Program-made: the position numbers and the translations under genes
Assembly (NCBI GenBank): GCA_045837725.1
Contig: JBEWZL010000276.1
Span: forward strand, 1-64,000
Direction: 5' to 3'
DNA: 64,000 bases
Origin: Vermamoeba vermiformis
Lineage: Eukaryota
Shown: in pieces, positions 17 through 24,925 of the stretch
How the letters are laid out: each line of letters begins with the position of its first letter
How positions within the stretch are numbered: position 1 is the first letter of the stretch
The notes under the pieces: model-generated
Databases searched by the model: none
The model's input: the letters and a program-made list of their open reading frames with translations, nothing else
What the model was told of the DNA's origin: nothing

Positions 17-2082
17 TTATTCGTTTAACATTCGATGAAATTTGACTGACACTAAATGCTCTTCACCCCCATTCAAGTCATTTGATATTCCGCACACTTT
101 AAAACTTTTTGCAACGATGTCGGCTGGGACACGATTCCACGCAGATACTATCCAGTTGACAACAAGTTGCTTGGTGGGGCTCTGAAACACTGTTTGGTTA
201 GCTCTCCAGCGATCATGCATAGCCCTGTAATGATGCTTGAATGACTTGTTAATTGACACGTCAAGAGGCTGGACAATTGGGGTGCAAGCAGGAGGTATCA
301 AAACAATGTGTGTGTTAGCAAATTGGCGTTGTTTTGAGGCTTGAAATTTCTTATGTCCTCCAAATTCATCCCAAACTAGCAAGTTCACATTAGTCCCAAC
401 ATGGTGATGCCAAACTTTATCAAACCACAGCCGTGTCAAAGAGTGATCGTTCCAAGCGTTTTCTTGAAAGGCAATGTGTGCCACTTTAGGGGATACTACT
501 ACACCTTTGACGCAGGCAGTAGTTTTACCTTTGAATATAATCATGGGTGGTAACTTGGTGCCGTCAGCCATAACAGCTAATATCACAGTGACGCGACTGC
601 GTGATGCCCCAGATGTTTTGACAACGACCGTCTTTGATCCTCGTTTTTGAACAACCTTTCGAGCAGGAACCTCATAGTAAATGGCTACTTCATCCATATT
701 TCCAATGAAGTTGACTGGAATGCAGTGGTTTTGACGATTGGTGTTGATTGATGTCCAGAATTTGTCCAGTTCCTCGGCGAGTGCCTCGCGTGTGTACAGT
801 TTTGAGGTTGACACAGTTGGAGTGCGTAACGAAAGGTTGTGCCTGCGAAAGAAGCCGTGCAACCATTTATCAGATGCCGCAAAATTAGGGTGGATCAACT
901 TTGCTTTGTCTTTGATGTTTTGCGGTGTCACTGATAGTTTGCGGTCACGACGGGCTAATATCCATGAACACAATTGAATCTCTTCAGCCTCTGTCAACAG
1001 TGGTTTGCGTCCACCACCATGTTGACGCAGCCTTCCAAATTGCAATGTTTTTTGTCGCCAAGAATACAAAGTTGATTTTGGAATTTTGAAAAGACGCGAC
1101 ACCTCAGCAACTCCAAGACGTTTAATTTGATCCAAAATGTAAATAAACTGGCGACGATTTCGCTTTAAAGAATTATACGAGTTAAGTCGCCGCTTAACGT
1201 TAAAGGGTTGGGAGGTAACTGGTCGCGGACACACATCAGGCTTTGAAGCTTGTTTTACTTGCAGACGATGTTTTAAGAAGTCAAATTTATCTAAATTATA
1301 GTAAGATATATGTATTATAAGTCTCTGCCCATCGTAAGTAAGCCAATGAATGAGCCACCAGGTGACCGGTAACAAATCCATTAACAGACCACAGATGAAC
1401 AAAGAGCATCAGTAAAGCATACCTGAGAATGGAACAACTGGAAAATCACAGGAATTCACTTTAGTGAGTGTCTGCTTGTGTTGTACTGGAGACTGTTGCA
1501 GTTGAGGAGGCTGATCTAGTGCCTGAATGTCAGGATCTAGTTCTGTTAGTAATTGATCAAATTCGATGGGATTTTTTTTGTTTATAGTCAATTAGACTGT
1601 GCGCGTTCCAAATATGCAAACAGAATTGAATTCTGTTGCATAGTAACCCGTCGAGACCCGCGACAAGACCCGCGAAAAATTTGGTTCCTTGCAATGCTAT
1701 TCAGCTCAATGAACACAGAATTTAAAGTGTCTTATATGTCGAAGTAGGTTATTTGAGGTGTAGAATTCGAATTTGATGTCAAAATAAGGTTCTGAGCTCA
1801 TGCGATCCCAGGCGTGGATTTACGATTTGGATTAAAATTTTGTACTGACTTGTACTCCACTCAAAAATTCTATCTATTGAATAGATATATATAACAATAT
1901 TTTACAATACCTCTTGTGATAGTTTTGGATGCTTTGGCTGCAGGTCGATTTTGCTGGCTAGATCTAACTTGTACCTCTGCTTGCTCATCTGCAAACCATT
2001 TCCTATGGCGACCCCTTCTTCTGTCACTCCTGCGCAATGACCCAGGCTTGAGTTGCTTATAATATCTCTCTACTGTGGTCAT
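17..2082 (-). CDS. pogo-superfamily (Passer/POGK-like) DD35D transposase; predicted exons 2082-1911, 1542-1423, 1290-17 (521 aa)
   Basis: N-terminal HTH (GVAEVSRLFKIPKSTLYSW), CENP-B-type HTH (FAASDKWLHGFFRRHNLSLR), catalytic NMDE / LVWDEFGGH / QPLD with 35 residues between D2 and D3, and C-terminal SFKVCGISNDLNGGEE. The upstream exons join in frame through GT-AG introns 1910-1543 and 1422-1291. Confidence 0.9.
1541..1856. repeat. 316-bp inverted repeat, left copy (inside intron 1 of the transposase gene)
   Basis: Its reverse complement matches 2394-2709 with 5 mismatches and no gaps by manual alignment. Confidence 0.97.
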
Positions 2083-2216
2083 ATTGGTTCGATTGGAATA
2101 AAATTAATAAAATTATTCACCAATGGCCTTATTTTGGAAATTTTTGAATTCAGTCTCTTTGCTACCAGTTTTATTTGCCAGAATAGCACCAAAGGGTTTT
2201 ATTTTAGATATTTATC
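2083..2216. promoter_or_regulatory. Putative bidirectional promoter between the two divergent ATGs
   Basis: 134-bp AT-rich gap between ATG 2082 (-) and ATG 2217 (+); inferred from position only. Confidence 0.55.
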
Positions 2217-4181
2217 ATGTATCAAGACCTCGAATTGACCTCATTACAATCTCTGCTTGAGCACTGGCAACATCCAGGGCCAGTAACAGTGATTCTCCAA
2301 GGAATCCAACGCAGCACTGGAAAAGACAATCAAAAGAAGATGTACAGGTATTATATATACTCTAGATACCCTTAGTATCTAATTTATAACTTCAGTACAA
2401 GTCAGTACAAAATTTTAATCCAAATCGTAAATCCACGCCTGGGATCGCATGAGCTTGGAACCTTATTTTGACATCAAATTCGAATTCTACACCTCAAATA
2501 ACCTACTTCGACATATAAGACACTTTAAATTCTGTGTTCATTGAGCTGAATAGCATTGCAAGGAACCAAATTTTTCGCGGGTCTTGTTGCGGGTCTCGAC
2601 GGGTTACTATGCAACAGAATTCAATTCTGTTTGCATATTTGGAACGCACACAGTCTAATTGACTATAAACAAAAAAAATCCCATCGAATTTGGTCAATTA
2701 CTAACAGAATTGGATTTTACAGAATTCTGGTCACAGATGGTGAACTGCAGACTAACTTTGTTCACAACTCGACTCTAGCTGCCTGGGTTAGTCAAAATCT
2801 GAGTTCTGGTCGCCTACTGAAGCTTCCTGCAAGCAGTTGGGCATTTGTAAATGTTGACGAGTAAGTGCGAACTTATTTATTGCGGCGCCGCTAACATTGA
2901 TTAGGACAAAGACACTGTGCATTACAGACACAAGCAATATTCAATATTCAGAAAAAACACCTCATGTGAAGCCCCTATACCACATTGGCTTGGGTCCTAA
3001 TGTTAGCGAGTTGCCGGCGCCACCGCCAATCAAGTCAAAAAGCGACCAAATTGTCGACTCCACTGGCATATCAGATCAAGCACCAGACAACAACATAGGA
3101 CCCGATTCAAATGCAGAATTAATCACAAGTGATGTTCCAGCAGTAGACAACCAAAGCGAGAGTGCCGATGATGAAATTGATGACTTTGTAAGTTTTCAAC
3201 TAATTGCCGAACGTTTAATAACTCATTCTGTAGTATCAAACCATGAAGCAAGACAATGATAAACTCTACTCTTTCTATTACAAGAAGCATCCGATCCAGT
3301 ATCCAAACAATTCGCGCGCTTACTCTGCATTGCTGGTTCGAAAGTCGAAAAAGCGAGTGCGGGTTGGATATGATTATGACACAAAAGATTATGGGGTTGT
3401 CAGCGTTATTGCAGTTCTCAAAGTGCGAAATGGAAAGGCTTCTTTATTAGTTTTGGATGCCGAGGACGAAGTCCAGCGTGTGTCACCATCTTCGGTCAAA
3501 AATGAAGTTGGACAATCCAGTGCAACAGTAGTCAAGTCATCAGAGAAAAGAGTACATCAGTATTTGGAGCAATCTGAAGATACGGAGCCAATTTATTCAC
3601 CACAAACACCTCGCCAAAGAACTGTTGTCACGCGCACTTCCACTTCTGCGATCAACTCGAAGCAAACTCCCAATACTAACTCCATGCAACTTGTGATATC
3701 TCGTATTGAAGCACTTGAAAAGGAAGCCAGAGAGACCAAAGAGAGCATTCAGAAGCTGTCGAAACTACTGGAGGCACAATCTGCTAATTTGGCTAAAAAT
3801 TCTAACTCTGCTCCTCAATATCCTATGTTTGTTCCCTACCCTCAACTTAAAGGATATTTTGAACCAGCCCAGCAGTCTCCCAATAATGAAAATCGAAAAC
3901 GAACACACCGCTCTCGCTCTCGCTCCCGCTCACCATCTCCCAAGTCTTCGCGTCACAAACGGCACCCTTGGCAACTGAAATACTACAGTGACTCCAGATC
4001 ATCTTCATCCCGCTCTAGATCTGCCTCAAACTCACCTGAGAGGAGTTTTGAAAAGCACTACAAGAGGCGAAGATCCAGATCTCCAGATCGCCGACACCGA
4101 TTGACTCACCAATCCCCACGCTCACCCACTAGGTATGATTCATATGCACACAAGAGTTATAAGAAACAAAGATTTTATTAA
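2217..4181 (+). CDS. Unknown protein of about 499 aa: RPA70N/TPP1-like OB fold at the N terminus, acidic linker, beta-rich domain, coiled coil, Arg/Ser-rich tail; predicted exons 2217-2347, 2723(or 2708)-2860, 2905-3187, 3234-4181
   Basis: Four exons splice in frame with canonical GT-AG and join ORFs 2556..2864, 2897..3259 and 3243..4181. The spliced motif KMYRILVTDG resembles RYRLLMSDG of RPA70N. The tail contains RSRSRSRSPSP. Confidence 0.75.
2394..2709. repeat. 316-bp inverted repeat, right copy (inside intron 1 of the OB/RS gene)
   Basis: See the left copy. It ends in ...TACTAACAGAA, the branch point/acceptor region. Confidence 0.97.
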
Positions 4182-4605
4182 ATAATAAACACCATTCCAA
4201 ATTTCTTCAACTTGTTTTGCTTTACGACTTATTTGGCAGTTTACAGTACACCAATTTTAATGCTGCGATCGAGAAATGTCGTTCCTGAAACCACATCGGT
4301 TTGACAATTTTGTGTTAATTCAATTTAATTACGCATAAATTTTTTGAATGCAACGGTTGCGTTAGTATCTGCTTCAGATTTTGAAAGAAATCTTGTTTTG
4401 CTTTTAACTTACATCCACTTCCCTTCGCTGGCAAACGCGGTAAAACAATTGACAATCACAATAACGTGCTAAAATAGTATGATTAAACATCTCAATTATT
4501 TCTGTTATCTGTTCGCTGATCTGTTTCAGTTGTGAAAAATAAAAGTTGAAGAGTTTGAGACCGAACATTCCAAACACTGGATCAACACAGCTAATATCTT
4601 TAATT

Positions 4606-6253
4606 ATGGCTACAGAGTATACGGAACGAGTCAAGTAAGAGAATGGTGCTTTAGCAAGAAAAATATCGGATCTGATCTTATTGTTTTATTCATAAACAAC
4701 TTAAAAATTGACAACTAACAGGAATTTATAATTATTTAATATATTGTTGATTTTAATACAATTTTAAACGGTATAATCGCTCAATAACTAATTTAGAAAG
4801 TCAGATCCATTTTTTGAAAATTTTTGTAAGCTAACGTAGTGGTTGTAGGCGTCGCTTGAACAATATTCTCGAATCGACTGACTTAAATATCGGCAAAAAA
4901 TTTGCCGGCAAAGTCCGCGACGTTTATGAATTGCCGAATGAGATCGTGATCGTCACTACAGATCGACTCAGCGCCTTTGACAGAAAATTAACAAGCATTC
5001 CTTTTAAAGGGTACATATAAATACAATATTACTACCATAAAGATGCTAATTATTACATTAGACAAGTGTTAAACCAAACAGCAGCGTTTTGGTTCGAACA
5101 AACCAAGCACATCTGTCCAAACCACATTATTGCCATCCCCGATCCTAATGTTATCGTGTGCAAGAAATGCACCGTATTTCCCGTAGAGGTAAAATGCATT
5201 CCTTTAATCTCGAACCATCTACATCCGATCTGCAAATTCAATTCCTGCCACAAGAGCTTTTATGACCTGGTTATACTTACTAATTGTATCAAATAGGTTG
5301 TTGTTCGAGGTTATGCTACTGGAAGCACTGCTACCTCATTGTGGACTCATTACAGGTAAGATCCGTCTTTTCATTTAACTTTGAAACTGCTCATTTCTTC
5401 GCCACATCCGAGATACTTATAGTTTTATATATTATAGTAAAGGAGAACGTAAATATTGCGGTCACGTCTTGCCTGATGGCCTGAAAAAAGATCAAAAATT
5501 ACCACAAGCTATTGTGACTCCTACAAGTACGTTCCACGAGTCCTAATTGTTGTCTTATAAGACTATTTTATTTATTATAAGTATTATAATATTAATTCAA
5601 TGCTATTTTAGCTAAGAGTGACGAGCACGACGAATTGATTTCAGGCGAAGAAATTATTGCTAAAGGATTAATGAGCGAGGTAATAATAGCACTAAGGCAT
5701 TATAACAGGTAATATTGGGGCTAATGTTCATTATAATAGGCTGATTGGAAAGTTGTGCACGACATGGCATTGAAATTGTTTGCTTTTGGTCAAGATCTAG
5801 CCGCCAAGAATGGAATGATCCTCGTTGATACTAAATACGAGTTTGGCAAGGACGTACAAGGCAACATTTTATTAATTGATGAGAGTAAGCAGATCCACAA
5901 CACTTCCTAAAAAGGAAATATTTTGTACTGACAAATACTTCTCAGTTCATACACCTGATAGCTCGCGTTATTGGATTGCATCGAGTTACGAAGAAAGATT
6001 CAATGCAGGACAAGCACCTGAAAGCGTTGATAAGGATATTGTAAGAAATTGGTACCGACAGCACTGCGATCCGTACAAGGATGAAGTATTGCCGAAAGCA
6101 CCCGAAGACTTAATTGTGTTGCTCGCTGAACGATATATTAACCTTTATGAGCGTATTACTGGCCAGAAATTTGAGTTCCCTTCCGAGCAAGACGAAAATA
6201 TTCCTGTCGGATCCCGCGTGGAAACCAACTTGAAAAAATACTACAACAAATAA
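4606..6253 (+). CDS. ADE1: SAICAR synthetase (phosphoribosylaminoimidazole-succinocarboxamide synthase), multi-exon
   Basis: Motifs [45 protein letters not shown] and DKDIVRNWY across exons; first exon MATEYTERV at 4606. Confidence 0.95.
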
Positions 6254-6301
6254 AACTACAGTAAATCAATTTTAAATTTATTAAATCTAAAGTTTATGCT
6301 A

Positions 6302-9300
6302 TTACTTCTTTTTCTTCTTGGTAGTAGTAACGACAAAAGCAGACAGATCCATTGTGTTTTCTTCCTCGTCTGGCTGTCGTTCTGATCCAAAAAAAATTAG
6401 CTCGGTGATGCTATTTAATTAAATTATGCACTTACCATATTGGTCATAATCTTCTTCCTCATTATAATACTCCTCTGAGTCATAATCGTCGTACTCGTGA
6501 ATAGCGTGGGCAATGCGGTCGTCGGTGGATCCCAACAAGGCGACAACACTGTTCGGATCTAAAAATAGGATTAGTTACCATTTATGGTAATATCAATAAT
6601 AGCCGACAGGAACTTACTAATCTTTTCTTGCTTATTGTAAACAGGTTTGCAGGTTCGATGCACTTCTTTCTGGATCAGCTCGGGCAACTCAGCAAATTCT
6701 TCGCTGTAAACAATATCTTCGTAGTGCTTCTTAATGATGTCCAAGCAATGGTTCTTAAGGACTTTAGAGTTGTACACGGATGCAATTTGGAGCACAGGCA
6801 ACACCGTGTCTTCGTCCAAATGTTCGCTAATGTAATGCTCGCACTTGTACTTCAACGAGTTGATTCTGTATTGGTGACTCAACATGAACAATTCCAAGAT
6901 GTAATTGGCTGATAATATCGCCTTGCTGGAGTACAAATACTCCAAAACTGAATACAAGACCTGAGAAAAAAAAATGACACGTGTCAAATTCAAAATTTCC
7001 ATATTAAGTCATAAAAAAATGGTCAGGACGTACCATGTAATCAGCCTCAACAGGAATGGCCGCGTATTTTGTAGCCTCAGCCATGCCACTGTCAAACATT
7101 GCCCTGAAGTACGAGTTGCGGCAGTACAACAGTGCCTTGTGCGCGTACAATTCTTCTCCGCTGTTGTCAATAGCAAATTTAATGTCGTGATATTCTTTTG
7201 AGTTCAACATGGTGCTCAAATCAGTTTCAAGCGTTGAACGAGGAATCCACTTGATTTGCTTCGAGTGAGGGCTGTTTTCAATTGTAATCTTGCAAATAGC
7301 CACAAGACGAGGCAATTCATATCTTCAAATAATTATTAATAAAATAATATTAATAAAAATAGAATGGTTTGTACCTTGTTGCTACGGGCAAAAGTTTCTC
7401 GGCGACTTCAACAGTCAATCCGTCGACAAAATCAGTGTACAAAAATTCAATCAGGGCCAAGAAACTCTCGTAAGTGAAGTCAGAGTCGGTGATCTTGATT
7501 TCTTTTTTAGCAGCGTTCGAGTTGTTTTTGTCCATATCCGCAAACAACTTTTTAAATTCTTTTGATCGTGCTGCTAAAATGAACTGATGCGCATTGATAT
7601 TATGATCTACATTAATAATAGTATATGTTAGCCTATCATAGCGTGTAATTACAAGTGCAAGTTCGCTTACCTTCAACGACAAATGTTACGTCAGAAAATT
7701 TGTCGCTGTTGACTAATGCCTTCAAGTTAAGGCTGATCAATGGCTTTTTAGCTACACGGCACATTTGTTAGTTCATTATTGACGAGACATTTTTTTCTAC
7801 GGTTAAACTTACAGACTAACACGGCACAAGTGTCAGCACTGAGACCAATGTGCAAGACTTGTTTGGTGTGCACGCCCTCAATGACACTAGGAGGGCTCGG
7901 TTGGTTCACTTTGAACTGATCGCCGTGGCCCAACACAGCGGCACCACGTCCCCAACTGTACAAATCTCCGTTCTCTGTCGCAAGTGTTAGTTAACCAGCG
8001 AAATTTCTGTGAGATTTTTAACGTACTTGACAAAGCAACAGTGACTTGATTGCCGCATCGGACCAGTTCCCAGCCTCGGTCCAAAGCGTCAATGTCAATC
8101 GCTACGGGCAACAACGAGTAACTTTGAGAGGGTCTGTCGGCCAATGGTGGTCTGCCGCATTGACCCATCGTGTTGTCTCCCCACGTCCACATGACACCAT
8201 CCTCTACACGCAGAGATTAGCCGCTGGTCGAATGTTTTCATTGTACAAAATTCTACGTACCAGCAATAGCGCAAGTATGATCCCAACCACATTGCACGCT
8301 CTTGAACTTCTTGTCTTCGAAGAATTCAACACGACGAGGATAACCGCTCAATGTCACCGTCTCCGTGCCATGACCAAGTTTACCGCGAGCTGGTCCACCC
8401 CACGTGTACACAAAGCCATCTATAATATCAACAGTAAACATCTACTTAAGTAATACTGAGCGTTGTTCTACGTACCAGCAATGCAGGCAGTGTGCGTCTG
8501 ACCACAAGACACGTGCGTGACGTTCTTCAAAGTAATAGCTGTGGGATGTCCTTTGACCAGTTGAGGCGTGTCAATGGAGCCGAATTTAGATTCGAGACCA
8601 AGTTGGTGCGTTTCATTTCTTCGCATTAACGTTAGTGCCAGTACATTGACGCATTCGAGTGTATTGACGTACCTGCCCCAAGTGTACAAAGTGCCGCTCT
8701 CAGTGATGCAAGCAGTGTGATGGACACCAGCGCTAATGTAAACAATCTTGAGCGCGTCGATTGATTTGATGAGCTCAGGGAACTGTAATTGAACGACGTC
8801 TTTGTGACCTAATTGACCGAATTCACCTTCACCCCACGAGTACACGCGACCAGTATCTGAACCACAAGAATTACTATACTATCTTAACATAGGCTGCTAT
8901 AATAATACTTACCAGTCAGTGCCAAGGTGTGGTTTTGACCGCAAGAAATTTGTCGAACATTAATGCCCTTGATGCCATCGATGATGCGTGGAATAGGTTG
9001 ATAAGCCAATGAATTGTGGCCCGTTTGACCGTACGACGATGTGCCCCACGAGTACACATCACCAGTGTCTATAAATAGATCACGTTAGTAACTAAAAATA
9101 GATTTTTCTAAGAGTGGCACGTACGTGTCAAAGCGACGGTGTGCGCGACACCACACTCAATAGACACAATGTCCTTGTGAATGAGAGCGGTCACAGTGAC
9201 GGGCACATTGCTGTCCTCGGTCTTCTTGCTGCCCAATTGACCGTCAATGCCTCGGCCCCAAATTAAGATATCACCTGCTGCACCGGCAAAGTACGGGGAC

Positions 9301-10148
9301 TCCTCTGACAAAAGAAAAAATATTAATTTATATTTGAATTTGGACTTCTTATTTGTATTGTTAATATTAGTATTTACCTAGATGAGTGGCTCGCATTAAC
9401 TTTGCGATTTGTTTTGCTTCGTCATCGTCTTCAGAGATCGGCTTGTGGTTAACAAGACTATCGCCATCATCGTTGTTATGGTTGTTAATTATTGTTGTTA
9501 TGATCGTTAAATTCCAAAAAGTTATCTTCTAACTCGTTCCATTCAGCCTCATCCAGATCCAAACCGTTTCTACGTTCCGCGTCCTCGAGTTCGGCGATGC
9601 TCGGAGTATAGCCAGATCGAAACTTCTTGCCGCCAACTTGCATAATAGAATTCGACCTCACCTGTACTACCTTAGGCTGGCCAATTAACACGGGGTATCC
9701 GAGCGGTGAAGGCATGTAACGGGCATTGCGATCGGCAGCTGTCTCGTAAATATTTCCACGGTGTTTCTAAAATAGATATTAACGTCACACAAAGAAATTT
9801 GTGGGTAGAGTACGAATTATGAACGATTTGTATGCTAATCTTAATTATTTGAATTTAAGTTGTTTTGGAGAAGGAATTCAGAATTGATCGCTCAAATTTA
9901 ATTTAAGAAAATTGATAGAACACGATCACCTCCACTAATAATTATAATTAAGTACATACATGTAATACGCGCATTCGGGCAAACACTGCATCCACTCGTT
10001 GCCGCTCATCTTGCGTTAACGTTGCTTTCAGTGCAACTCGTCCGTCCTTGTCCAAACCAACTAGCATTCTACAAACCTCTTGCAAGTTTGCTGGCGTGCT
10101 CAATTGGGTGAACGCACGGGTCATATAAATGGTCTTAGCGTTTGACAT
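6302..10148 (-). CDS. RCC1-repeat plus tandem BTB/POZ domain protein, multi-exon; apparent +1 frameshift near 9487
   Basis: Repeated YSWGxGxxGQLGH...SCGxxHT motifs (7750-9310), BTB motifs HQFILAARS and YAHKALLYCRNSYFRAMF, and a BACK-like tail. Exon 10148-9960 splices in frame to 9766. The 5' part could alternatively be a separate small gene ending at 9485. Confidence 0.85.
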
Positions 10149-20727: not shown

Positions 20728-23700
20728 TTACAGATCTGAACTTTTATCTTCTGCGCTGTTGTCTTCAAACCGTTCGTAAAATAACATGTAGGCTTCCTTG
20801 CGCAATACTTCTTCAAATCGGAGCTCGTGGAACTGAGTGTCGGAAAAGTAATGCCATCCCGCGTTGACTGAAAAAAAGGTTAGATGCGCATCCAAACAAA
20901 ATGCACAAAACGGCAGCACGAAAAGGGGTGACGAGCCAAAAAAGCAAAAAGTAAAGAGCACAACACCTCCGATTCCCAGGTAGTCTCCTACCCCAGTACT
21001 AAGAAGGCCTGAACAAGCTTAACTTCGCTGATCGGACGGGAAGCGGTGCATTCTTGTTAGTGTGGTCGTGCCCGAGACGCTTTGCAACATCGTGTTCGGG
21101 TCACTACTTGCCATACCACCAACAAATCGAACGCACCGAGCTTGTCCGTCAGCTTTGTCGTTGCAAAAAACTAGTTTGTGCCAACCAGCCAAAAAATTAC
21201 AGACAAAAAGCAAAAAAGAAAGAGGCCCCGCCCGGAATTGAACCGGGATCCTTGGAGTCAGAATCCAATATAATAGCCATTATACTACGGAGCCGTTGTT
21301 GAACGCCGCCTTAGAGGTTTTGGCGTCCCCTCAGTTCCGAGGGGGAAAAACTTCGAAATTTTTCTTTCTGGTGAGCGGATGTACTTACTTGCGTCCTCCA
21401 ATGTCTCGTTGACTCTTCTATTTCTAACATAGGCTACGTAATGACCACTGTTCAAGCCACCACTATGTGAGACGATGCCATAGAGCTTGTACTTGTATCT
21501 TTTTTCTTGTTCGTCGGAGGTCTCGCTCAGGTACGGAGTCAGATCCAAGATTGCTGGGAATTCTACGAAGGTGCTAATCTTTTGAAAGCCGTTATGAGTT
21601 TGCATAAATCGCTTGATATGCAAGGTTAAAATCTCCGGTTGCTTCTTAAACAAGAACTGTTTAGTTGCAGTCCTTCGTAGTAGTGGGATCTTCGGTTTAG
21701 GAGCTGGCTTGACTTCTTTCTGGAGCTTTTCTTCTTTCTTTTCTTCTTCTTTCTTTTCCTCCTCATCGGTATCCATCTTATTCTCGCTGTCGGTTGTCAA
21801 AGCATTGTACGGATTTGACTTCACATCATCTGAGCCCTCAACGGCCTCTTCTTCTTTCATATGCGGCTTTGCTCGGCGTTATTTTCTTCCTCTTTGTTTT
21901 CGTTAGTTTGTTCGAGCTTCTTTTTGATTTCTTCGATTTCTGGCGGATCTCCGTGAGCCAAAATAAGTGGTGTTAAGTCCTTGTTGTGCTTCATCTAACA
22001 ACGCGATCGGGTTAGATATCAATACGTTACTACACTAATGTAAAGACTTACCCAATGGAGCTTTGTGCAATTGTAACACGAGAACGCGTTGTCACGGTCT
22101 AACAACTCTGGAGCAGTGAACGCGTAAATGGTTGATTGAATTGAACAGCCACTAGGCACTTCTTTGACGCGTCGTCCATCGACTTGACTCATCATTGGCG
22201 GCACGGTGTCTTCAGGCAAATCGTCCCAATCATTCTTAGGGGCCACTGCTTCAACTTTGGTGTTATTATTCTTGCCCTTTTCTTTAGTCTCTTTGGCACT
22301 AGCCTCGTTCTTTTCATTCTTCTCTTCGGGCTGTTCTTTTGCCGGCGCTACTTCCTCGGTCTTAGTCTCGCCATCCTTGGTCTGGCCCGATGCTGCAGTT
22401 GACTCTTCTTTCTTTTCCTCGCTTGTCGCAGCCTCGGCATTGGTGGAAGTCGTATCAGGAGTTGGCTGTTGTTCGCTCGTAGCTTCGTTTTTGGGAGCAT
22501 CGGAAGTTTCAGATCTTCGGTGTTTCTTCCATTTTAACGTCGGTAGTACTGCTGCTAGCTTCAGATTGGGTCGAGTTCTCTTCAGCAGGCTTGTTCTCGC
22601 CATCCACTTTCGGTGCCTCATCCGTAGTCGCACTGCCTTCGGAGTTTGGATTGTTTTGGGCCTCTTCTTGCTTTTTCTTCGCTTCTTCCTCTTTCTTCTT
22701 CTGTTCCTCGGCTTGTTTGTCTTTCAACTGCTTTTCACGAAGTAATCTTTGCCGTTGTTTCTTGTTCAATTTAACCTCTTCTTGAACCGCTGCTGCTTTC
22801 TTCGAAGAAGGTGATTCTAACGACAAAGACAAGTCCAAAATAGGCTCTATGACACGAGACTTGTGTCCACAATGGTGGCACGTGATCGTGCTCTACAATA
22901 GCTTTGTTATTAAACTATAAACAATAGATTGGCTAATTATGACATACCTCTAATTGACCTTCAAACAGCTGTTCAATTAATGATGGCGGAGGCTTTGCCT
23001 TGACTTTCGCAAGGACTTTCTTCAGTTCTAATTGCTGTTCTTTAGTTAACTTGTCCAAGCTCGGGAAATTAGCCATTTCTCGTTTTGCAGCTTCAACTTG
23101 GAATACAATTCTTTCTTCGCTGCTAATACCGTCTAACAAGTACCGCAAAAGTTCTTGCGCGTCTTGTTGTCTCATAGTTGAAAACCTCGGTGCCCTAATG
23201 ACATTAAGGTTAAGATAATTGATTCGGTATTATCTATTACACGTACTTTTTCTTGATTTGAAGGAAGAGCGATTGCGGCGAAAAGACGTTGCCTTTGCCG
23301 TGCCACATATTGACCATAAAATCTTTGAATGACTTCGTTAACGGTCCTTCTAACGGTGCCGCAGGGACGTTGTTGTTGTTATTTACACTGGGCTTCGGTT
23401 CATTCTCTGGTCTTCTTTTCTTCGCTAGCCTTCACTTCTTCAGTCTTATTTTGTTCACTCGCGGTGTCTTTTTGTTCCGGGGCTACGCTTGGATTATCAT
23501 TCGAAGTTGGCGCACTCGTCTCATTAGTGTTATTATTGCTCGCAGACTCGCTACTGCTAGTGTTAGCAGTTTCTGACTCGCTCGATGATTTCTCTTCCTT
23601 CTTCGTGTTGTCGTTATTTTGGGCTGGCTTCTCGATCGTTTTCATCTCTTCTCTAATAGGCCCCATGATTTGAAACAACTTTCTCGCGGAGAGGAATTGT

Positions 23701-24925
23701 GTGAGCCAAATTCTTCGAAAAATTTAGCGATTTTCGTTGCACGGATAACAGTTTAAACTACGTACCTGCATAATGGAATTGAAAAAGCACGTGTTTCCAA
23801 GATTTTTCAATCCTTTAATGCCGCTGGTCATATCGTTAGAAATATCCAAGTGAGCGACTTCATTGGCCAAAGTCAGCTCGATATCGTCGTTAACGCCTTG
23901 CTTTCCTTTCCTCGATTGTTGCTGCTGTTGCTGTCTGCCCTTCTTGCCTTGATTTTTCTGATTTTGTTTGTTATTTTTACCGCGTTGCTCTTCGTGACTT
24001 TCTTCTTCGTCTACAACGTCTTGTCAATCAATGTCTGGAGTGCATTTACGGACAATAAATTAGACTTACTTTTACTCTCTTTCGCGTCATCTTCTGCATC
24101 ATCGTCTACCTCGAGACCTTTTACTTTTTTAATAACATTAAGGCATTGGCGAAGCTCTTTGTATTTATCTGAATCATCGACTTTGATGTTCAACGCGCAT
24201 TCAAAACATCTAAAAAAGACCTTCGGTTAGCTCGTATTAAATATAAATGTTGTTATAATACTTACCGCACTTCGAGGGTCTTTAAATTAGCAATAACGAA
24301 ATGTTTGTTGTAATAGGCGTAGTGTTGTCGTGCATGAAATTGTGGAGTGGATGTGCCACAACTGATAGCACCGCACGTTAAACAAACCCATAAATCATCT
24401 GTTCGTGCCTTAAATAAATATTAGCATTTTAAACGTTGAGAATAGGCAAAGAACGACATGCAGCTTTGCTAAAATTTTTTCAATAATTTTCTCAATTATT
24501 TCAGATTAGAATGTTACTTGTAAGTATTTAAATAAATTAATTCGCCACTTACTGATTTGTTTGCATGCTGTTTGCCTTTTTTTCTTCCAGATTGACAGTC
24601 CTAAATAAAAAATAATTCTTAAATTACTGCAGAATTAAAGTTTTTACCACAATATTACGTAAATTATTTTTTCAATTAGTATTACAAAACAACAATACTA
24701 AACTTCATCATGCAGTATTCAATTTAGATTTACCTCGCAACCTTTCAAATTTTTCGTTTCAAGCATCTTTTCGAGATGATTAGCTGGCAATTTAATATGT
24801 TTACAGCCATCGCTGTCGTCGCCATCATCCCCTAAGAGAAAGACTGTCAGATCGCACATCTATCAAGATGTCCCTTTACTGTACGCACCGTGCTGCTTGT
24901 TTTGCTTCCTCTTTCCTTTTGGCAT
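20728..24925 (-). CDS. Ubiquitin-specific protease with zf-UBP (USP16/USP45-like), multi-exon; several apparent frameshifts
   Basis: LWVCLTCGAISCG...HARQHY, Cys box GLKNLGNTCFFNSIMQ, QQDAQELLRYLLDG, LTLHIKRF, His box LYGIVSHSGGLNSGHYVAYV, and AYMLFYER. Confidence 0.93.
20954..21073 (-). rRNA. 5S rRNA, nested in the last USP intron
   Basis: The minus strand reads GGGCACGACCACAC...GCACCGCTTCCCGTCCGATCAGCGAAGTTAAGC...TTAGTACTGGGGTAGGAGACTACCTGGGAA...GGTGTTGTGCTCTTT. It is about 120 nt, its 5' and 3' ends pair, and T-runs follow. Confidence 0.95.
21223..21294 (-). tRNA. tRNA-Gln (anticodon CTG), nested in the last USP intron
   Basis: GGCTCCGTAGTATAATGGCTATTATATTGGATTCTGACTCCAAGGATCCCGGTTCAATTCCGGGCGGGGCCT forms a 72-nt cloverleaf with anticodon arm TTGGA-TTCTGAC-TCCAA and is followed by an oligo-T terminator. 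Confidence 0.96.

Follow-up and report, generated by a model that had tools for sequence, protein, structure and literature searches.

A candidate two-gene pogo element with an RS-tailed accessory protein in a contig of Vermamoeba vermiformis

The stretch analyzed here, positions 1 to 64,000 (forward strand) of contig JBEWZL010000276.1 in the Vermamoeba vermiformis assembly GCA_045837725.1 (hereafter the window), contains at 2217..4181 a gene for a predicted protein of 499 amino acids, here called the accessory protein, lying head to head with a gene for a pogo-type transposase. On balance, we consider it fairly likely that the accessory protein is the product of a functional gene carried by a transposon. 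The element would be a low-copy cut-and-paste transposon of the pogo superfamily (DD35D, TA-inserting), at least 4.25 kb in length, and it would hold two divergent, intron-containing genes, one for the transposase and one for the lineage-restricted accessory protein.

Two divergent genes with a common intron sequence

The window is eukaryotic DNA of approximately 40% G+C with short spliceosomal introns. A first-pass annotation, made from the letters alone, had claimed a spliced gene of 499 codons, and had quoted peptides of an N-terminal domain that appears only after splicing. This model, with all of the quoted peptides, was reproduced in silico: the accessory gene lies on the + strand and has four exons, an ATG at 2217, and three introns, all of them of the GT..AG type with compatible phases. 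The joined frame is open over 1500 nucleotides (nt), corresponding to 499 amino acids and a stop codon. Exon 1 (2217..2347) has an open frame of 43 codons plus 2 nt and is followed by a GT donor at 2348. Intron 1 (2348..2722, GT..AG) encloses one arm of the inverted repeat described below; it also has an in-frame alternative acceptor at 2707, which would add five residues if used, and its RNA fold was not significant (z-score −1.62). Exon 2 (2723..2860) is phase compatible, and exon 3 (2905..3187), flanked by GT-AG sites on both sides, encodes the end of the N-terminal domain and an acidic, proline-rich linker. Methionine (Met) is absent from the open frames around both of these exons, which would thus be translatable only once spliced to an upstream exon with an ATG. 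Exon 4 (3234..4181, stop at 4179-4181) encodes a basic beta-rich domain, a helix, and an arginine- and serine-rich (RS) tail, and is the exon with database homologues (P0001-P0003).

In a codon-usage score trained on 19 host open reading frames (ORFs) from the window, each accessory exon scored highest, among its six frames, in the one proposed, and the intron repeat and the downstream spacer scored below zero in every frame; because the frames had been picked for being open, this amounts to weak support. Two RNA-seq runs (X16 and X18) with the species label of the best-matching DNA data set gave 0 and 4 reads, respectively, over 1870-6400, including the neighboring SAICAR synthetase gene, and hence provide no gauge of expression or splicing. 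Given this scarcity of reads, the organism of the window may not be the one named by that label, or the reads may diverge by more than 5%.

The transposase gene is on the − strand. Its main exon (17..1290, stop at 17-19) matched the Pfam families DDE_1 (E = 1.4e-27) and HTH_Tnp_Tc5 (E = 9.5e-12), and 323 homologues of the transposase were found at E ≤ 1e-5. When 60 sequences (that of the window and 59 relatives) were aligned, the main-exon residues D199, D307, and D343 did not vary, and the last two had a spacing of 35. Judged from this alignment, the transposase is a DD35D enzyme with an intact catalytic triad. Such a spacing is typical of the Passer and Fot families (PMC7386202). Two putative upstream exons join the main exon in frame, for a total of 521 amino acids. 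The first of these (1911..2082) has an ATG at 2082, an open frame, and a GT donor, with an ambiguous codon score and no Pfam match, and the second (1423..1542) has an AG acceptor, a GT donor, a compatible phase, and the best codon score of the six frames. Alternatively, an unspliced reading from an internal Met gives 454 amino acids, the length of the database protein P0004. The start codons of the two genes are separated by a spacer of 134 bp (2083..2216), which from its position is presumed to be a bidirectional promoter.

The same sequence occurs in the first introns of both genes, as the two arms of an inverted repeat. Arm 1 (1541..1856) lies within the first transposase intron (1543-1910) and arm 2 (2394..2709) within accessory intron 1, and they match over 316 nt at 98.4% identity by BLAST, or over 335 nt at 96% by ungapped extension. 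Both arms are closed by the acceptor sequence ttactaacag. With the genes transcribed in opposite directions, the repeat would be present in each of the pre-mRNAs in the same sense and with the same acceptor. No further copy of the 316-nt repeat was found elsewhere in the 64-kb window, and in X1, a DNA data set bearing the same species label as the RNA runs, it is covered at roughly double the depth of single-copy DNA. Two other interpretations of the repeat were discarded. What looked like a further copy of the beginning of the repeat, at 4244 (CAGTACA..AATTTTAAT), had a local alignment score of 24, lower than that of shuffled sequences (up to 34). The arms could also have been the ends of a foldback or miniature inverted-repeat transposable element inserted at 1541-2709, but the edges show neither TA nor any other direct duplication, and removal of this segment would leave promoterless gene bodies head to head. 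Separately, a sub-threshold Rfam match to the fungal C/D-box snoRNA Afu_264 was seen at 1870-1982 on the + strand (24.4 bits against a gathering threshold of 40, E = 0.14); it lies on the strand opposite to putative transposase exon 1 and is probably due to chance.

Junctions, selection, and relatives of the accessory gene

Contigs from X1 and from another DNA data set, X3, were compared with the window over 1870-6400. One X1 contig and one X3 contig match the window through 4248, beyond which each runs into a sequence of its own, unlike the other. A second X1 contig agrees with the window from 4247 rightward, into the upstream spacer of the SAICAR synthetase gene, and is preceded there by a third sequence. 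The TA at 4247-4248 is retained on both sides of these junctions, which have three partners in total. Such junctions fit a TA-duplicating element that would end at 4246 and sit at different loci, with the site of the window empty in X1. The 3' untranslated end of the mobile unit would then span 4182..4248 (+ strand), with its presumed end at 4246 and 4247-4248 as the TA target, and the insertion site would lie approximately 590 bp upstream of the SAICAR synthetase coding start. From the differing continuations at this TA, the accessory gene most likely lies inside the mobile unit, and we judge it rather probable that it is cargo of that unit. The link to a pogo transposon proposed in the first-pass annotation is physical, the two genes being divergent, 134 bp apart, and marked by the common repeat, and the junctions now suggest that the accessory gene is probably within the mobile unit itself.

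Differences between the window and an X1 contig spanning 2782-4178 indicate how the accessory gene has evolved. There are 25 such differences, 24 of them exonic, with 17 synonymous and 7 non-synonymous changes. If the same kinds of change were placed randomly, only 7.9 synonymous changes would be expected (P = 1.35e-4). In exon 3, five of the six differences are both third-position and synonymous, and exon 4 has 12 synonymous and 6 non-synonymous differences. Hence, purifying selection acts on accessory exons 3-4.

The 5' part of the gene is altered in X1, where position 2187 is joined to 2565. The missing segment (2188-2564) lies between ACCAAA hexamers at 2188-2193 and 2565-2570, and its loss reads as a microhomology deletion that takes exon 1 and 171 nt (half) of repeat arm 2. 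Neither X1 nor X3 gave any coverage of 2188-2393 at ≥95% identity. Internal-deletion derivatives are known among copies of DNA transposons. Contigs also break in X1 after 2114, where 255 letters that differ from the window follow, and in X3 before 2849, where 38 such letters precede, a hint that additional copies exist in rearranged or truncated form.

These observations raise the question of whether the 5' model is wrong, in which case the product would begin at Met 3243 (312 amino acids, like P0001) or in some other first exon, and the N-terminal domain would be an artefact of chance frames. Gene callers yielded the 312-residue form only, exons 1 and 2 have no family match, and exon 1 is the very part that is missing from X1 and, with its surroundings, uncovered in both data sets. 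However, exon 3 is third-position-biased in the proposed frame and contains no Met, so upstream exons are required; the splice sites are canonical with compatible phases, and exons 1 and 2, too, score higher in the proposed frame than in the other five. We thus regard a wrong 5' end as improbable.

Relatives of the accessory protein are few. Residues 185-406 were searched exhaustively with HMMER against 1.84 billion cluster representatives, of which two matched, P0001 (99% identity) and P0002 (32%, E = 2.4e-19); for exon 4, the match to P0002 has 33% identity and E = 5e-28. When P0002 in turn served as the query of a word-indexed search, P0003 (62% identity to P0002) was found as well. Each of these proteins is an ORF call, with lengths of 309-328 amino acids, on contigs of 1.2-1.7 kb. 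They have in common a stretch DK.Y.FY..PI.YP..R.Y..LL ... R.GYDY.TK ... NG...LLV, followed by a short helix and the RS tail. P0002 and P0003, which represent two further lineages, are 33-38% identical to the accessory protein and retain its beta-rich domain of the RVGYDY type, its helix, and a tail rich in RS, with arginine and serine making up 47-50% of the last 100 residues. Their N-termini are mutually unrelated and pyrimidine-rich, and end in ..CQ and ..TQ, respectively, directly before the conserved FGQ. This fits an intron acceptor near the position of intron 3, and P0002 and P0003 probably need upstream exons too. The relatives of the accessory protein step from 99% to 33-38% identity and those of the transposase through 99, 87, 64, and 62%, on short contigs; the two sets may or may not come from the same organisms. 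The protein clusters of both genes are tiny, with 1-2 contigs each.

The pattern of conservation bears on a further explanation, namely that the gene is host DNA captured by the transposon (transduplication), transcribed at most accidentally and functionless. DNA transposons are known to pick up host fragments, exon 1 is dispensable in the X1 copy, and no known domain was detected in the protein. Capture without function would not explain the excess of synonymous change, nor why the domain order is kept at 33-38% identity in two other lineages. In addition, the exhaustive search revealed no host parent, and both of its matches have the same architecture as the accessory protein. We therefore consider this explanation very unlikely.

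An account in which the gene belongs to the host is also unlikely in our view, though to a lesser degree than the two above. The gene, alone or together with the transposase as a domesticated transposase-partner pair on a bidirectional promoter, would then lie near or within rearranging DNA and would not be cargo of an active transposon. The 64-kb window contains a single copy, and the depth of the accessory gene in X1 is close to that of single-copy DNA. Tiny protein clusters, spliceosomal introns in both genes, and host-like codon-usage scores agree with a host gene, and purifying selection is equally expected of one. Difficulties for this account are the three continuations at TA 4247-4248, with the host flank in X1 joined to other DNA, and the presence in X1 of an exon 1-less derivative at full depth, an unusual state for a host gene that is needed. 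The transposase also keeps its catalytic triad, and homologues were found solely on contigs of 1.2-2.6 kb, the outcome expected if assemblies break at repeats.

Several points weigh against a functional gene carried by a transposon, the reading that we favor. The junctions at TA 4247-4248 could be two independent insertions of other elements, one in X1 and one in X3. Because the transposase stop codon is at 17-19, the left end of the element would lie beyond position 1, which places the terminal inverted repeats and the second TA out of view; the last 100 nt of the element have no inverted copy in the window. In X1, the accessory gene has a depth of 343, compared to approximately 300 for homozygous single-copy flanks, which indicates about one copy per haploid genome there and no repeat family. 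As exon 1 is deleted in the only copy observed in X1, that copy cannot make the same protein. Metagenome scans (for the accessory protein and the transposase), a prokaryote-genome scan, and a viral scan returned no relative with genomic context. Finally, the splice junctions of the accessory gene are predicted ones, and Pfam, PDB, and Atlas searches assigned no fold or family to any of the accessory domains.

Domains of the accessory protein and surroundings of the gene

The accessory protein can be divided into five parts. The N-terminal domain (residues 1-105, isoelectric point (pI) 6.2) is encoded by exon 1, exon 2, and the first ~15 codons of exon 3, and is followed by the acidic, proline-rich linker (residues 106-184, pI 4.1), which ends in DDEIDDF. 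The conserved basic beta-rich domain comprises residues 185-290 (pI 9.8), the short amphipathic helix residues 333-365, and the RS tail residues 404-499. The RS tail claimed in the first-pass annotation was recovered, together with a helix: arginine and serine make up 48% of the last 96 residues, with 19 RS/SR dipeptides, and the helix is predicted by AlphaFold with moderate confidence (predicted local distance difference test score (pLDDT) 64-78). The orphan status claimed there likewise holds, given the two matches among 1.84 billion cluster representatives.

The remainder of the structural predictions had low confidence. AlphaFold2 models built from the C-terminal exon with 4-sequence alignments had pLDDT values of 39.8 (182 amino acids) and 42.9 (92 amino acids). 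The helix is the sole part of the C-terminal model with moderate confidence, and the conserved domain was modelled as strands only, at low confidence. A predicted complex between transposase exon 3 and accessory residues 185-366 had a score of 0.00 ('no support'), which counts neither way.

Family and fold searches gave no assignment above threshold. In Pfam, no family exceeded the cut-off for any part of the accessory protein or any homologue, and these scans showed no RNA recognition motif (RRM) and no Myb, SANT, or trihelix domain. Scanned singly, the exon 1, 2, and 3 peptides, over which the N-terminal domain is split, matched no family at E ≤ 1. For the beta-rich domain (185-290), a Tudor/royal-family or SH3-like barrel found no Pfam match, the best hit being CSD_RNase_II at a sub-cut-off E of 0.1. 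PDB sequence searches with exon 1 and exon 2 singly gave chance matches only (E = 1.3 and 0.33, respectively), and the best E in a PDB profile search with the family alignment was 1.8. In the Atlas, nothing usable was found for the beta-rich domain, and exon 2 drew only anonymous short clusters.

The first-pass annotation likened the N-terminal domain to the OB folds of RPA70N, TPP1, and Est3. The domain may resemble RPA70N, although no tool reproduced the likeness: single exons gave no match, and no relative with an uninterrupted N-terminus turned up in the collections searched. The expected fold is a five-stranded barrel with a basic peptide-binding cleft, and with a pI of 6.2 the domain is not basic overall. 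Within residues 20-100, the hydrophobic stretches follow a strand-strand-strand-helix-strand-strand order that would suit an OB barrel. The first-pass annotation had suggested that the protein might serve as a repair-factor recruiter, a decoy, or a splicing regulator.

The surroundings of the gene pair consist of host genes. Directly to the right lies a stand-alone SAICAR synthetase gene with several short introns (4835-6253, + strand), followed by a gene for an RCC1-repeat protein with BTB/BACK domains (~6300-9400, − strand). Further right are a histone H2A, a response-regulator receiver, ephrin-receptor-like repeats, a UCH protease, a periplasmic-binding-protein-type domain, and a Ras GTPase. 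Together with the stand-alone SAICAR synthetase, these genes would point to a protist or an early-diverging fungus and away from an animal. Over the spacer at 4704-4865, X1 has two contigs with depths of 177 and 150, and 5 and 1 differences, respectively, from the window, which suggests two haplotypes (a diploid or a mixed population). A strong AT skew (−0.30) relative to the rest of the window was observed at 22001-24000, where no tandem repeat was found. Two long open frames overlap there on opposite strands (22019-22723 on the − strand and 22188-22745 on the + strand); the − strand frame, the sole one scanned, had no Pfam match.

Comparison with known elements and possible role

Published pogo elements, as described in the cited work, are 1.2-5.2 kb long, make TA duplications, and have one or two ORFs that encode the transposase (PMC7386202). 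The element in the window resembles pogo elements (Passer, Fot/Fot-like) in its combination of HTH_Tnp_Tc5 and DDE_1 and in the DDD triad spacing of 35; its insertion at TA is inferred from the junctions, and its length of at least 4.25 kb falls within the published range. It differs in that a separate, divergent gene encodes an unrelated protein, and in that both genes bear the same 316-nt sequence in their first introns. Both pogo and Tc1/mariner elements are described with a transposase gene between inverted repeats (PMC7386202, PMC7325037). The literature searched lists no pogo element that carries an accessory gene unrelated to the transposase, and no RS protein encoded by a transposon, which is not proof of absence. 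A pogo design of two genes is unusual, and so is an intron sequence common to both.

Several other transposons encode a second protein. PIF/Harbinger elements are likewise two-gene cut-and-paste elements in which the second protein is no nuclease, and in Harbinger this second protein both brings about nuclear import of the transposase and binds to the element ends (PMC9392472). Their transposase is of a different superfamily, however, and their second protein is Myb-like, whereas the accessory protein has no Myb, SANT, or trihelix domain, so that the analogy is a functional one only. Plant Helitrons carry an RPA-like gene and provide a precedent for a eukaryotic DNA transposon with an OB-fold, RPA-related gene (PMC4683698). 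These genes are homologues of the single-stranded DNA-binding RPA subunit in rolling-circle elements; here, in contrast, the element would be of the cut-and-paste type, and the RPA70N likeness is a proposed one with no Pfam match. Within the wider IS630-Tc1-mariner group, ciliate TBE/Tec elements have three ORFs, the extra ones being a zinc-finger protein, a small ORF, and a recombinase (PMC7325037). They are comparable to the present element in having extra ORFs, but none of these resembles the accessory protein, and the host biology is different.

The RS tail invites comparison with two kinds of cellular protein. A strict SR protein has at least one N-terminal RRM and a C-terminal RS domain of at least 50 amino acids rich in RS/SR dipeptides. 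The accessory protein has such an RS domain and no RRM, and is therefore no strict SR protein. In the N-terminus of the lamin B receptor, which consists of a Tudor domain and an RS stretch, the latter likewise follows a small beta-rich domain; here, Pfam yielded neither Tudor nor any other family for the beta-rich domain, which was modelled with low confidence.

If the accessory gene is indeed functional cargo, its protein would be a nuclear helper of the element. RS tails are known to act as signals for import and for targeting to speckles, and the tail of the accessory protein would direct nuclear import or localization to speckles or chromatin. Binding to nucleic acid or chromatin would be the task of the basic beta-rich domain, and contact with the transposase or with host factors that of the N-terminal domain or the helix. 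The accessory protein might in this way work like the second protein of PIF/Harbinger, importing the transposase and delivering it to the transposon ends. This specific mechanism, which is drawn by analogy, is tentative and at present doubtful. Much less likely still is a bolder version, in which the protein would be a self-encoded SR-like regulator of the 316-nt intron sequence in both pre-mRNAs, and in which a true RPA70N-like OB fold and the acidic DDEIDDF-type stretch would couple the element to host replication or repair proteins. If true, the SR-like regulator would constitute a self-contained splicing switch for transposase production, and an N-terminal domain that proved to be an RPA70N-type recruitment module would mean that a transposon had borrowed a docking domain for checkpoint or repair.

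If a pogo element does maintain a second gene that is under selection and encodes several domains, the superfamily would gain a two-component design like that of Harbinger. Such an element would also offer a compact system in which to learn what a eukaryotic cut-and-paste element needs beyond its transposase, be it access to the nucleus, the choice of a target, or control over how its own transcripts are spliced.

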